From Eledone cirrhosa (lineage: Eukaryota): a DNA stretch of 64,000 nt. A model generated the notes under the pieces. That model did not search any database, was not told the DNA's origin, and saw nothing but the letters and a program-made list of their open reading frames with translations. Below, piece after piece: positions 16,191-47,770 of this stretch. The stretch spans positions 264,182,001 through 264,246,000 of the forward strand of contig OZ024743.1 in NCBI GenBank assembly GCA_964016885.1. Direction: 5' to 3'. The position numbers were made by a program, and so were the translations under genes. The first letter of the stretch is position 1; each line of letters begins with the position of its first letter.

Positions 16191-19005
16191 GTTATAAGAT
16201 AAGTAATTGTTGAATAATTATTTGTATTGAAACATTCGTAAATTTCTTAAATGATTTCAGAAATCTATTCTATCATCTTAATTTCATATATATACTAGAC
16301 AAATCCAGTTCATCTCCTTTGGAGAATGCTTTCAGTAGTTGGTTTATTATTTAGAATATGGAAATGAAATCAAGAAGTTGAAATCGATTATTGTGGTTGC
16401 CAGAAGAAGGGAGGGGAGGGGCTGATACAAACAATTGTAAAATTATTTAGTGAACTAAAATAAAAAAAATCCCTTGACACACACACAAACGCGCGCGCGT
16501 GCTCACATGCACAAACCACACACTTACACCCCCCCCCACATACACATATATGTAGATGGATAGATAGATCGATAGATAAAGAAAGAGTAATACATACAGG
16601 TACAAATCAATGTGTGTGTAATGTAGAAGCTATGGTTTATTTTGCTGTCATATCTAGCAAGCCACGTTACCAGAACAAAGCTCTTTGCGCCGTGTACAAC
16701 AGACCGATAGATAAAAAGCAAACCGCAATCACTTTAACAGATGTATACACACACACACGCACACACACGCACACACACACACACACACACACACACACAC
16801 ACACACACACACACACACACACACAGAGACATAGTATAATAACTACGACGTTACAGTTCTCTGTCTATCTAATCTCTTTCTATAACTCTCTCACTATCTC
16901 TCTATCTATTCCTCTCACAAATGGACTGACACACGGAAGAATGGACATGATTTGACTTTTATTTATATAGCTTTAATATATACGATCGGCTTCTATGCAG
17001 CTCCATCAATGAAATGTTTCACACATGGCATTGGCCAAAAAGAGAGATGACAGTAGATATCTGCCCACTGTGCCACGCATTGCAACTGAACATGAACGTG
17101 CATGGTGGGGCAGTCAACTCCTTCACAAAACCACCATGTTTGTGCGTATGTGTTTTTTTTTTTCAATATGATAAACATATTTATGTAACCAAAGACTGTT
17201 TGAATATGTCCCCATGGCTGATTTAAATTCAGCAATTTACTAAAACGGGATCGATATATTACGTACAAATTTAGATATAATTAACTAAAGTATTTAAAAA
17301 CGGTACACTTGCATGGTCGTATTCCAATGGTAGAAACAAGACAAAGAAAAAACAAAAATCACAAACATTTAAACAAATCTTCTAAATCAACTCATGTTTT
17401 ATACTGCATCGGCGATGGCACAGCCAAAGTTTAAGAGATAGAGAATTCTCTACAAATGTTCTATTTAAGATTTTGGTATTTGGTTTCTGTGACCTCAGAA
17501 ATTGACAAATGATCAGCAGCGCCCGCACTTGACTTGACATAGTTCTTCACATGAATTGTATCACAAGTTCAAACACCACTTTTTAAGTTTTGTCATATTT
17601 ATTTCTCTCCCTCTTCTCTTTTTCCACTCCTCTGCTCCCCCTCACTCTCCCTCCCTCTCATCTTGTACTTCTCTGCTCACATCTTTTTTCTCTCTTCCCT
17701 TCCCTCTTTCTATTGATCTTTTCAAAGCAGACGTGCCGCTATTATTTGCCAGTACATTTTTTTATACACGTTATAAATCACCAAAAAAAGCAATTAATTA
17801 ATACTCATCGTGAATAACTTAAGCATAAAAGGATTTTCATAGATTTATTTTTGTTTTATGCTTGTAATTAATTTTGTTGTTATATTTTGCTTACACCTCA
17901 CTACGCTTTCAATGCGTATTTACAAAATAAATTTCATAGAATCTTAAAAAAGATTAAAAAATGTTACATAAAAAAATTAAGAATGAGACTAAAAACAATG
18001 AATATTGCAAGAACTCCTGATAGAAGAAATACAAAAATGATGGTAGAAAACAGCACAAAAACAACGAAAGATACAAAATAAGACACACAAGAAAAAATAT
18101 AGAAGTAAAAACGCCACACCAATAAAATAAACAAACCATTGACCGTCTGAAATGTCTAATTTAATCTAAAAGTATTCAATAAAAGAATTGTCCAAGGCTT
18201 CCAATATAATAAGACAATGAAAATCCTGCAATGACAATATAAGCGAAATAATTGTGAGTTCCAAATTGATTTTCATCAATGAAGAACATCCGTTTGAGAT
18301 ATACTGCTTCGAAGGCGAATTAACTTGACAAATGAATAAAATTTTCTCGAACGATTGAACAATTATATATATTTGAATATAAAAAACAAAACCTGAAATA
18401 AAAAAAAAGTTACCAAATAACAGTATTGAACGAGAAAGTATCTCCTTTATTAGCAGTAGAAAATTATATATATATATATATATATATATATAATTATACA
18501 CACACACATATACATATGTATTGTACTTCTATTCTCATCCTAAATTGACTGCGGGCTCTCAAGAGTTACCTCCCTCGTAACTTACACGATTTTTTTTTAA
18601 ATAACACTTTTTTCTATACATTTTTCATTTTTTAAATTATCCGCCCTTGCGGAAACTCATTTTTGTTTCCCCACAGGAAAAACACAATCAACCATAGGAG
18701 GCCATCTTTGTTTTTATTTTTCTCATGACAGGCTGAATGAATTGGGGCCTAGAATCCAACGAATCTTGAGTACCTGTTTATGTCACTGTTGTAATTAAAT
18801 ATATATATATATATATATATATATATATATATATATAAAAGAAAATTTTCGCTCTACATGGCTGAATACAATAAATGTAATCTGAATTTTTCGAATATTA
18901 ATAACATTCCATTCGTTTGCAATTATGCAAACAAACCTCAATTTTATAGCCATGTGAGTAGAATGAACACTTCTTTCTTGATATTGTGTTGGCATGTGAA
19001 CAGAA

Positions 19006-19049
19006 CTGCAGACACTAATGTTTCTGGGTATTACCCTTCATCAGTACAG
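19006..19049 (-). ncRNA. Type I hammerhead ribozyme (family A)
   Basis: CTGTA-CTGATGA-aGGGTaatACCCa-GAAA-CAttagTG-TC^TGCAG on the minus strand. Confidence 0.85.
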
Positions 19050-19061
19050 CTCTCTGTTCGC

Positions 19062-19203
19062 CTGCCATACTGTTAGAGCGAGTGAAAATATATGCTATTT
19101 TCAAAAATACACAGTGACTGATCGGCCTGATTTGCATATTAGCAGGCCGCCTGATGAGTCAAATCTGCATATTAGCAGATCCACTGATCAGCCAGATTTG
19201 CAT
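19062..19203 (-). promoter_or_regulatory. Putative compact snRNA/U6-type promoter of family A
   Basis: Three 33-bp subrepeats, two with a perfect octamer (19130-19137, 19196-19203). On minus: TCACTGTG from 19117, TATAT from 19092, GGCAG from 19066, HHR core at 19044. Confidence 0.55.
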
Positions 19204-19340
19204 ATCAGCAGACGGGCCACCCAGTTTCCTGTATACGAGTGTTAAATGGCCGGGTTTGCCAAATTGAAATAAAAAAGAAAATGTTCACTCTACATGGCTG
19301 AATACAATAAATGTAATCTGAGTTTTTTGAATATTAATAA

Positions 19341-19460
19341 TTGTTTCTACTTTAGGCACAAGGCCAGCAATAACCCAGTGCATTACTGGTACTTTTATTT
19401 TATCGACCCCGTAATTATGAAAGGCAAAGTCAACCTCGGCGGGATTTGAACTCAGACCCT
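19341..19460 (-). mobile_element. SINE family 1 (5'-truncated) inserted in family A unit 2
   Basis: Reverse match to the SINE 3' half, with flanking taataa duplication. Confidence 0.8.
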
Positions 19461-19738
19461 AATAACATTCGATTCGTTTGAAATTATGCAAAGAAGCCTC
19501 AATTGTATAGCTATGTCAGTAGAATGAACACTTCATTTTTGCTCTTGTGTTGGCTTGTCAACAGAACTGCAGACACTAATATTTCTGGGTATCACTGTTC
19601 ACCTGCCAAACTGTCAGAGCTAGTGAAAATATCTTCTAAATAAAACTCAGATTACATTCATTGTATTCAGCCATGAAATGCGAACATTTATAGCATATAT
19701 TTTCACTAGCTCTGACAGTTTGGCAGGTGAACAGTGAG

Positions 19739-19782
19739 CTGTACTGATGAAGGGTGATAGCCAGAAACATTAGTGTCTGCAG
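19739..19782 (+). ncRNA. Type I hammerhead ribozyme (family A, inverted arm)
   Basis: CTGTA-CTGATGA-agggtgatagcca-GAAA-CAttagTG-TC^TGCAG, with one stem II mismatch. Confidence 0.8.
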
Positions 19783-45676: not shown

Positions 45677-45984
45677 ATTCTATAATAAATAGACGTACGG
45701 ATTTATTTTCGCTCTGCTTGCATAAATCCCATAGAACATTCCATAAAGTATACAGCTTTTATATGTTTTACAAATATACCCATCTATATGAAATCAAGTC
45801 ATTAGAGATATACTTCACTGCTTTACGATCGTTTCTAGATGGTTATAATACATTGTATTTATACTCAGTTATTGATCTATGTAAGTTTACAAACTATCAG
45901 ATGGAGAGAATATTTACTTACATGCATATTACCAGCTGTTTGCAAAAGCAATATATATATATATATATATATATATATATATAT

Positions 45985-46198
45985 GAACAAGTAAGACCCC
46001 GACGGCTGAGCTCAAGCCGTTTCGACGGCTAATTCTGTGAATTCACTAATTCGGCTAATTCACAGAATTAGCCGTCGAAACGGCTTGAGCTCAGCCGTCA
46101 GGGTCTTAATTGTTCCTATTGCCCACTCTACTACCCTAAGTATTGAGTACTTTGGTGCGTTATGGTCCACCTGGTTCCTTACAACATTTCCTTCGTTA
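45985..46198 (+). mobile_element. HHR-tail element family D, fold-back copy 3
   Basis: Hairpin 45985-46115, GAAA 46077-46080, GTC^ 46097-46099. (TA)n on both sides. Confidence 0.75.
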
Positions 46199-46874
46199 TA
46201 TATATATATATATATATATTTCTATGTATGTATATATATATATACATGAATATGTATAATATATGTATGTATGTATATATATACATATATACATACATAG
46301 ATATATATACATACATATATACATATATATATACATATATATACATATATATATATATATATATATATATACATATATATACATATATATAATATGTATA
46401 TACATATATATATATATATGTATACACACATATATATATATATGTATGTATATACATACATATATACATATATATATATGTATATACATACATATATACA
46501 TATATATATATACATATATATATATGTAAGTATGTGTGTATACGTACATACATATATGTATACAGACGTACAGTAGCATGCACATATATATAAATATATA
46601 TACATATATATATATATATATATATATATATATATATATATATATATATATATATATATATATATATATATATATATATATATATATATATATATATATA
46701 CATATATACATACATATACATACAGGTACACATACATATATGCACGTATCAGTTTAGCAGACGCTTATTATAAGGCCGCTTTGTTCGTTTGTAAACAAAC
46801 TGAACAGACTGAATTTTTATGCCGTACGGTGTTAAGGCAACCACGTCACCTTTTTTTTCAACACTGACACAGGA

Positions 46875-46917
46875 ACGATGTACTAGTTTCAAGCTTGTTA
46901 GCTATCATCAGCACCGT
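46875..46917 (-). ncRNA. Type I hammerhead ribozyme (family C)
   Basis: Minus strand: ACGGTG-CTGATGA-tAGCTaacaAGCTt-GAAA-CTAG-TA^CATCGT, with palindromic stem III ACTAGT. Confidence 0.88.
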
Positions 46918-46925
46918 ATACCCAT

Positions 46926-46999
46926 CTGCCAGATAGTTGAACGTTCGAAAGTATATACTTTCCTTATGAAAATTAACGGCTGAGCAGCCTAATTTGCAT
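46926..46999 (-). promoter_or_regulatory. Putative compact snRNA/U6-type promoter of family C
   Basis: On minus: ATGCAAAT 46999-46992, TCAGCCGTT from 46983, TATATA from 46957, GGCAG from 46930, HHR core 46911. Confidence 0.55.
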
Positions 47000-47770
47000 A
47001 TCGAGTGAGCTAAGTCGGTCAGACATACTGAAAACGATGAGTTGAAAAAAAATGAAAACGAAATTTCATTTCTCACTCTTAGTACGGCACTTACTTAAAT
47101 GTAAGTATGTGTGTATACGTACATACATATATGTATACAGACGTACAGTAGCATGCACATATATATATATATATACATATATATATACCTAACAAGCTTG
47201 AAACTAGTACATCGTTCCTGTGTCAGTGTTGAACAAAAAGGTGACGTGGTTGCCTTAACACCGTACGGCATAAACATTCAGGCTGTTCAGTTTGTTTACA
47301 AATGAACAAAGCGGCGTTATAATAGGCGTCTGCTAAACTGATACGTGCATATATGTATGTGTACCTGTATGTATATGTATGTATATATGTATATATATAT
47401 ATATATATATATATATATATATATATATATATATATATATATATATGTATATATATATATATGTGCATGCTACTGTACGTCTGTATACATATATGTATGT
47501 ACGTATACACACATACTTACATTTAAGTAAGTGCCGTACTAAGAGTGAGAAATGAAATTTCGTTTTCATTTTTTTTCAACTCATATATATATATATAGAA
47601 ATATATATATATACATATATATTACATATATATATGTATATACATGTATATATATATATATATATATATATATATATATATATATATATATATATATATA
47701 TATATATATATATATATATATATATATATATGACAAGTAAGTATGTTTTGAAACAGTGAGCAGGTTTGAA

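Follow-up and report, generated by a model that had tools for sequence, protein, structure and literature searches.

An internal promoter-like module of hybrid small nuclear RNA type in hammerhead retrozyme families of Eledone cirrhosa

Introduction

According to the accessible part of a 2020 review, retrozymes seem to harbour no promoters and to rely on read-through (PMC7761336), and the word 'promoter' occurs 0 times in the available part of the 2026 retrozyme preprint of Li et al. (bioRxiv 10.64898/2026.07.22.740005). Here we analyse a 64,000-nt stretch of the Eledone cirrhosa genome (contig OZ024743.1 of assembly GCA_964016885.1, positions 264,182,001 to 264,246,000), referred to as the window, which contains three families of hammerhead repeats, A, B and C. 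An earlier note, made from the sequence alone, had reported that they share an octamer, a proximal sequence element (PSE) and a TATA box as found in small nuclear RNA (snRNA) genes, and had interpreted this module as a promoter of RNA polymerase III (Pol III). Judged by its motifs and their spacing, the module is a hybrid which combines the octamer of Pol III genes with the PSE–TATA geometry of RNA polymerase II (Pol II) genes.

Hammerhead repeats with an internal promoter are already known. As described in the accessible part of PMC2220036, satellite 2 of newts and salamanders, a hammerhead tandem repeat of ~330 bp, has an internal snRNA-type promoter reported as Pol II (citing Coats et al. 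1994), and the hammerhead satellite of schistosomes has an internal promoter reported as Pol III (citing Ferbeyre et al. 1998). The newt satellite, invoked earlier as a precedent, is one as a hammerhead repeat with an snRNA-type promoter but not with respect to the polymerase (PMC2220036). For Penelope-like elements (PLEs), the accessible parts of two studies report that the PAc enzyme cuts AT-rich DNA, extends both target strands and starts reverse transcription inside the RNA (PMC11167929), and that Naiad and Neptune have a (TA)n bias and form tandem and inverted insertions (PMC8557442). In the full-text literature (subscription papers and repeat databases lay outside the search), we found no report that molluscan retrozymes carry such a module, nor any description of cephalopod snRNA promoters.

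Results

The module upstream of the ribozyme

All three families carry, upstream of the ribozyme, the motif ATGCAAATnAG, a YCA box at +16 and TATA at +42 to +45 (numbered from the octamer start; positions in Table 1), and every motif of the module as first described, from the octamer through the TCA box, TATA and RGCAG to the hammerhead core CTGANGA, was found at its locus. The TCA box starts at exactly +16 in A, B and C; the gap behind the octamer exists but is tighter than the 8–12 nt first given, namely 8 nt in all three. The TATA-like element lies at +45 in A, +43/45 in B and +42 in C, RGCAG at +71, +70 and +69, and the core at +93, +99 and +88, respectively. RGCAG was counted earlier as part of the common module and is indeed present in A, B and C; it was rejected as a conserved element because the module-bearing families D, E and I (see below) lack it. 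A regular expression composed from the elements A, B and C themselves (octamer-nAG-YCA-TATA) matched the window 4 times, in the three modules and in a further A copy (13362), and had 0 matches in 200 shuffled windows.

For the ribozymes of A, B and C, the predicted fold is that of a type I hammerhead whose stem I is extended (z −2.97, −2.77 and −2.73), stem III being palindromic in B and C. Hammerheads with a palindromic stem III may need dimer cleavage. Since the Rfam scan of the window (E ≤ 1) gave no hammerhead family and only sub-threshold, microsatellite-driven matches, mostly to microRNA families, the assignment of A–C rests on motif and fold. With host TATA boxes at about −30, the predicted start would be the A that follows RGC in RGCAG, at ~19063 (A), ~42856 (B) and ~46927 (C), 3 nt downstream of the 5' ends expected before (near 19066, 42853 and 46930), and the hammerheads would cut after 19011, 42913 and 46881, respectively. 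We consider the snRNA-type module of A, B and C, which lies inside the tandem unit as originally proposed and whose motifs match host promoters, to be a real and probably functional feature.

Comparison with host promoters

Our ruler consisted of 21 host promoters, 6 of Pol III genes (three U6, U6atac, MRP and RNase P) and 15 distinct ones of Pol II genes (five U1, four U2 and six U5), with U4, U11, U12, U4atac, U7, 7SK and tRNA-Sec outside the set. Among the 32 U6 loci retrieved, L001, L002 and the array on contig C19 were taken as genes and 14 loci without any module were treated as retrocopies; U6atac had a promoter at only one of 6 loci (L229). The host Pol III promoters carry TATG(C/G)(A/T)AAT(T/G)AG at −76 to −78 in 5/6 cases and TATA at −30 in 6/6; the octamer–TATA distance is 46–48 nt (5 cases) and the PSE–TATA distance 31–33 nt, the position of the U6 PSE (CCT) being our own assignment. 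The RNase P RNA gene (L228), which lacks an octamer and ends in T9, has a U1/U2-type TCAGT at −62; TATA follows 32 nt later. In the Pol II genes (n = 15), AATT(A) is found at −88 to −91 and YCA(G/A)T between −55 and −58. All have a TATA-like box, with a PSE–TATA spacing of 23–28 nt in 14 promoters and 31 nt in one, and none of the 15 has the proximal octamer. The snRNA-type promoters of this host are very compact in both classes (Pol III, L001, L002, L003-array, L167 and L229; Pol II, L141–L166 and L325–L348). In 6/16 copies of the U6 array (L007, L008 and L010–L013, contig C19), the octamer/PSE region immediately before TATA has given way to a repeat resembling a short interspersed element (SINE).

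The octamer-nAG of the elements is the motif of host U6 and MRP promoters, and in A–C it replaces the AATTA which lies ~33 nt before the PSE (~−90) in Pol II genes. Its distance to TATA is 40–45 nt as compared with 46–48 nt in host Pol III genes. The YCA–TATA spacing (A 29, B 27 in the consensus, C 26, D 27 and E 24) matches the host Pol II range in B, C, D and E. When unit positions were ranked with a 36-nt core matrix built from host Pol II promoters, the +16 site came out as 1/436 in A, 1/323 in B and 3/330 in E; an earlier matrix based on U1/U2 only had given ranks 1 (A), 5 (B), 7 (C) and 134 (D). The sequence match of the PSE to U1/U2/U5 is strong in A and moderate in B and E, and the TCA box, which does resemble a host PSE, is nearer to that of U1/U2/U5 than to that of the Pol III genes.

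Two other hammerhead repeats, H (a 310-nt tandem repeat, L022) and K (L121), read AATT-33-YCAGT-26/27-TATA without an octamer and fit the Pol II core matrix at the 99.99th and 99.75th percentile, which, on sequence grounds, is pure U1/U2 geometry. No host promoter examined (n = 21) has both the proximal octamer and the Pol II-type spacing. The combination of octamer, PSE and TATA, taken before to mean a type 3 Pol III promoter, is not discriminating: because the host U1/U2/U5 promoters also carry TATA-like boxes, TATA is no mark of Pol III in this genome, and the Pol III reading of the module appears doubtful. In Drosophila, the snRNA promoters of Pol II differ from those of Pol III by 4 bp in spacing. 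In insects, Pol II genes have a different PSE from Pol III genes, and the PSE contributes to the selection of the polymerase, as stated in the accessible part of PMC1761439.

Families in the genome and their conservation

In the 3.0 Gb of genome searched, the pattern octamer-nAG...core...GAAA had 14,345 + 13,796 = 28,141 matches, a measure of abundance and not of independent origins, and its reversed control 0 + 0. Each family query gave >2,000 genomic candidates, 40 of which were scored. The unit lengths are 436 nt in A, 323 nt in B, ~470–500 nt in C and 466 nt in D, a newly found module-bearing family with arrays of ~30 units. The module is also carried by E and I, each known from a single locus. 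In the alignment of A–E and I, only octamer-nAG, CA at +17/18, the TATA letters, the hammerhead positions and two isolated columns are invariant, and A, B, C/D, E and I all retain motif and spacing, which bears out the expectation that octamer, TCA box and TATA are conserved in position. A, B and C had been called unrelated, without extended similarity. This holds for their bodies but not for the 3' ends of A and B, which are alike over ~55 nt (73%, E 0.002; score 76 in comparison with a maximum of 55 in 300 shuffles); with C and D being related families as well, 'unrelated' is therefore too strong.

The promoter (first 50 nt) is the best conserved part between lineages, with 96% identity between C and C2 against 69–76% elsewhere and 80% between C and D against 61–62% elsewhere. 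Among the copies retaining the region, in search-biased samples, the octamer is intact in 28/33 of A, 25/28 of B, 47/62 of C and 13/13 of D. In the hammerheads of C and D, 7 pairs show compensatory changes and 16 are broken (automatic alignment). Many other hammerhead clusters in the retrieved DNA have T-rich, PLE-like cores and no module. At L198, a tandem repeat of 549 nt (minus strand, 5518 and 6067) has a larger hammerhead with an octamer 104 nt upstream; TATA is missing where it would be expected. A 1-Mb sample selected without regard to these families contained A at 1 locus and B at 3, too few for an unbiased count of ends.

Insertion ends and mobilisation

A T-run closes each unit in A–D, and the first T4+ run had been proposed to mark the insertion end and to terminate Pol III transcription. 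The bodies downstream of the hammerhead are free of T4 as stated, but within chance: P(no T4) was 0.30–0.70 per family in dinucleotide shuffles, and 159/542 of the 200-nt stretches of the window lack T4. Whole units carry 1–4 T4+ runs including T5–T7, some within the promoter, and inserted arms, the longest measuring 686 nt in A, 742 nt in B and >3 kb in D, run through both T-run and promoter. Each family has two 3' ends, at unit positions 266 and 299–304 in A, 246–249 and 286–296 in B, and 357–363 and 431–432 in D, and TA repeats follow these ends in 51/74 (A), 39/65 (B) and 17/23 (D) arms. Among 52 head-to-head insertions, 18 had at least one unassigned end; all of the 34 with both ends assignable have one end at the T-run site and the other at a site 40–70 nt upstream. 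The run does mark one end, then, but the second 3' end (site 1) is without it, as at the arm ends 13095, 19919, 43029 and 46524. The T-proximal ends of C lie 4–6 nt past the run in 21/21 cases; those of A, B and D mostly lie directly at it, which does not tell the readings apart. With copies reading through, C ending past the run and the second end site alternating, the assignment of the run as a Pol III terminator appears doubtful; the T-run is one of two strand-specific insertion ends.

The 5' ends of the arms are scattered and do not accumulate where a start or cut is predicted. An apparent pile of 5' ends at position 233 of A was rejected, being an insertion hotspot of a SINE-like repeat. 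This abundant repeat, identical in kind to that in the U6 array, has a motif resembling a B box and occupies one and the same TTATT site of A (unit ~233), with differing 5' truncations, in 9 loci (L021, L024, L025, L026, L032, L045, L046, L047 and L060), one of which is the window copy (19341–19462).

The insertion pattern is of PLE type: the targets are TA sequences, the arms stand head-to-head, the 3' ends are internal and fixed, and the 5' ends are scattered. This is in line with the original proposal of non-autonomous hammerhead retroelements moved by PLE enzymes, and the pairing of the ends supports, in vivo, internal priming on two strands by these enzymes. Intact open reading frames (ORFs) with reverse transcriptase (RT) and GIY-YIG domains, up to 1,096 aa long, are present in the genome (Pfam RVT_1 in 6/6 and GIY-YIG in 4/6 at E ≤ 0.01). 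At L233:1150–1620, a U6atac retrocopy is joined head-to-head with an inverted A arm, and several U6/U6atac retrocopies abut (TA)n; these sequences suggest that one and the same enzyme may copy snRNAs and retrozymes.

A search for the 3' box found none in B and C, one 8.0-bit match in A (~99.9th percentile, expected by chance about once per three units) and a match of 7.1 in D; the A and D matches were not counted, being at chance level. As circles, the units are predicted to fold with z of −7.6 to −13.2 (25 shuffles) and 52–73% of promoter bases paired. The predicted pairing of stem I reaches further upstream than the predicted start, and TATA lies within a predicted hairpin in A–D. Read-through arms, end positions and whole-unit folds suggest that the selected RNA may include the promoter.

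Other features of the window

Repeats in the window were delineated by masked self-BLAST (Table 1). The head-to-tail joint of A was confirmed in contigs of sequencing runs (X1, X4, X5 and X6 examined), which also contain low-depth relatives in two further organisms (labelled B and C), the depths not being taken as copy number. The inverted A arm at 19690–19921 ends at site 1, as does the minus arm of the second A insertion (13095), whose plus arm ends at the T-run (13616). The minus arm of C reaches ~47160 and not only 47098, the boundary first given.

Table 1 Elements of families A, B and C in the window
Feature	Position	Strand	Evidence
A, one full 436-nt tandem unit	18837..19272	-	Head-to-tail joint 19270/19272 to 18837 in DNA contigs
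A, two additional upstream copies of the 33-nt octamer+TCAG repeat	19138..19212	-	33-nt skips in DNA contigs
A, octamer and nAG extension, ATG at 19137	19127..19139	-	Same motif in host U6/MRP
A, TCAGT PSE-like box (19121) to TATA-like box (19092)	19086..19121	-	Rank 1/436, host Pol II matrix
A, type I hammerhead, extended stem I, core 19044–19038	18988..19079	-	Motif and predicted fold
A, hairpin/T-run insertion end (site 2), abuts (TA)n	18837..18850	-	
A, rest of insertion: partial upstream unit, SINE-like interruption (19341–19462), inverted arm (19690–19921)	19273..19921	.	
A, second insertion, head-to-head: minus arm (octamer 13362, core 13269), plus arm	13095..13616	.	
B, monomer from cut site to cut site, 332 nt in the window (family unit 323 nt)	42582..42913	+	
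B, octamer (42783), TCAC box (42799), TATA-like element (42826–42833)	42781..42833	+	Rank 1/323
B, type I hammerhead, palindromic stem III, core 42882–42888	42851..42942	+	Motif and predicted fold
B, whole insertion, head-to-head: T-run end 42396, site-1 end 43029, internal T-run 42747–42750	42396..43029	.	
C, minus arm, unit ~470–500 nt including TA tract, ends at site 1	46524..47160	-	
C, octamer (46999), TCAG box (46983), TATATA (46957)	46952..47001	-	Rank 15/474, weak
C, type I hammerhead, palindromic stem III, core 46911–46905	46862..46941	-	Motif and predicted fold
C, inverted arm, end ~6 nt beyond T-run 47563–47576	47185..47582	+	

A palindromic insertion at 43122–43427 has a degenerate PLE-type hammerhead core (43239) and an octamer (43159), with TATAAATA 46 nt after the octamer, a U6-like spacing; nAG and YCA are missing and the arrangement may be due to chance. 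The segments 25445–26419 and 48022–49022 are 3' parts of the autonomous PLE family of L265/L266 and end in (TA)n; the hammerhead descriptor found no hammerhead in them. Two more PLE-type hammerhead motifs without the module, at 56247 (+) and 59536 (−), flank the inverted repeat 56386–59370. ARAGORN detected no tRNA gene in the window.

Discussion

On balance, the explanation which we consider probable is that these elements are retrozymes mobilised by PLEs, with an internal hybrid snRNA-type promoter and Pol II read-through. POU proteins, SNAPc and TBP would recruit Pol II to the module, with a start at an A ~30 nt past TATA; Pol II is proposed because the PSE–TATA geometry is that of host U1/U2/U5. 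The transcripts would pass through the promoter of the next unit, read-through being proposed since B and C have no 3'-box-like signal, those of A and D are at chance level, and Pol II ignores T-runs. Successive hammerheads would then excise monomers, as described for retrozymes, and with their circularisation the normally external promoter would become part of the RNA. The PLE enzyme (RT/GIY-YIG) would cut both strands of an AT-rich or (TA)n target and prime internally at two fixed positions, of which one lies at or slightly beyond the hairpin/T-run and the other 40–70 nt upstream, and such copying would yield head-to-head insertions and arrays that keep the promoter.

Several observations weigh against this explanation. 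Within the set of 21 host promoters, the proximal octamer is confined to Pol III genes, and the Pol III spacing used for comparison depends in part on our own placement of the U6 PSE. C matches the Pol II core matrix weakly (15/474), whereas D (63/466) and I (77/150) do not match it, and the YCA–TATA spacing of A is intermediate, its TATA register being ambiguous by 2 nt. An intact octamer is missing in 15/62 C copies and has decayed at L324, a long array of >20 C-related units, which suggests DNA-level expansion independent of the promoter. In A, B and D, the majority of T-proximal ends directly adjoin the run, as would be expected of an oligo-U 3' end, and the palindromes may stem from the copying mechanism instead of RNA selection. 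Finally, among 50 of >10,000 GIY-YIG candidate loci, no autonomous PLE shared sequence with A–D, the only matches being nested copies.

The second-best model, which we regard as unlikely, is the one first proposed, a compact U6-like type 3 Pol III promoter from which transcription mostly stops at the T-run, with rare read-through RNAs or circles carrying the promoter. Its proximal motif occurs in 5/6 host Pol III and 0/15 Pol II promoters at a similar presumed PSE distance (15–16), the bodies of A, B and C are free of T4 up to a T4–T7 run which the T-proximal ends of A, B and D abut, and schistosome hammerhead satellites are reported as Pol III in the accessible part of PMC2220036. However, the octamer–TATA distance differs from that in all 5 host cases, the absence of T4 is not significant, a T5 lies inside the body of D, C ends beyond the run, no 5' ends accumulate at the predicted start or cut, and H and K show the Pol II geometry without an octamer. 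Moreover, a promoter outside the transcript is heritable only if the transcript holds that of the next unit; Pol II read-through would give this directly, whereas Pol III would have to pass several T-runs, up to 4 of T4 or longer per unit.

It is improbable that the module is no working promoter but sequence or RNA structure inherited from a common ancestor, transcribed passively from host genes as the accessible part of the 2020 review proposes for retrozymes in general (PMC7761336). The hairpin around TATA in A–D and the octamer decay in some arrays would fit this, and the related pairs C/D and A/B reduce the number of independent origins needed, but motif and spacing are kept across the otherwise unalignable A, B, C/D, E and I, they match host snRNA promoters in motif and position, and the promoter is more conserved than the body flanking the ribozyme. 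Least probable is a dual promoter giving short Pol III RNAs from start to T-run as well as a replicative Pol II read-through RNA: the hybrid anatomy (an activator of Pol III genes with Pol II geometry), the T-run closing each A–D unit and the intermediate spacing in A agree with it, but the short RNAs, being without the promoter, would be unable to maintain it, and promoterless start-to-T-run insertions are not enriched.

What is new here, as far as the sequences tell, is retrozymes with an internal hybrid snRNA-type promoter. A bolder reading, to which we give less than even weight, is that promoters of host snRNA genes were taken over repeatedly by retrozymes of this lineage, which assembled a chimeric promoter with a U6-type octamer and a U1/U2-spaced core, so that tens of thousands of copies would transcribe themselves and the circular RNA would carry the promoter. 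If true, this would overturn the view of promoterless retrozymes and provide a natural series for the selection between Pol II and Pol III. With several high-copy families carrying the module in a fixed place and host genes as a ruler, the question of retrozyme transcription becomes directly testable, the hybrid A–E and the U1/U2-like H and K forming a natural spacing series for the choice of polymerase. The modules are also candidate promoters of ~75 bp for the expression of small or circular RNAs in a poorly tooled animal.

As far as the accessible parts of the sources describe them, the metazoan retrozymes without long terminal repeats (non-LTR retrozymes; PMC7229834; bioRxiv 10.64898/2026.07.22.740005) resemble A–D in their type I hammerhead in each unit, in their short, low-GC, non-coding tandem units, dimers to multimers, and in the PLEs alongside. 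A strongly self-paired circle is also common to both, though only predicted here, and the units of C and D (466–500 nt) lie slightly above the 150–450 bp class. The conserved internal snRNA-type module of A–E and I sets these elements apart from the retrozymes described there. Insertions of PLEs share with A–D the AT-rich or (TA)n targets, tandem and inverted copies, extension of both strands and an internal start of reverse transcription (PMC11167929; PMC8557442), but A–D have no ORF and no sequence in common with an autonomous PLE among the 50 loci. With the schistosome satellite, they have in common a hammerhead repeat and an internal promoter. The schistosome promoter reportedly consists of tRNA-type A and B boxes, whereas the module here is of snRNA type. 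The newt satellite 2, as far as described in the accessible source, is like A–C a hammerhead tandem repeat with an internal snRNA-type promoter; in E. cirrhosa, the families with the module number at least five (A, B, C/D, E and I), joined by the octamer-less H and K in one invertebrate genome, and the module has a TATA-like box and an octamer which precedes the PSE by only 16 nt.

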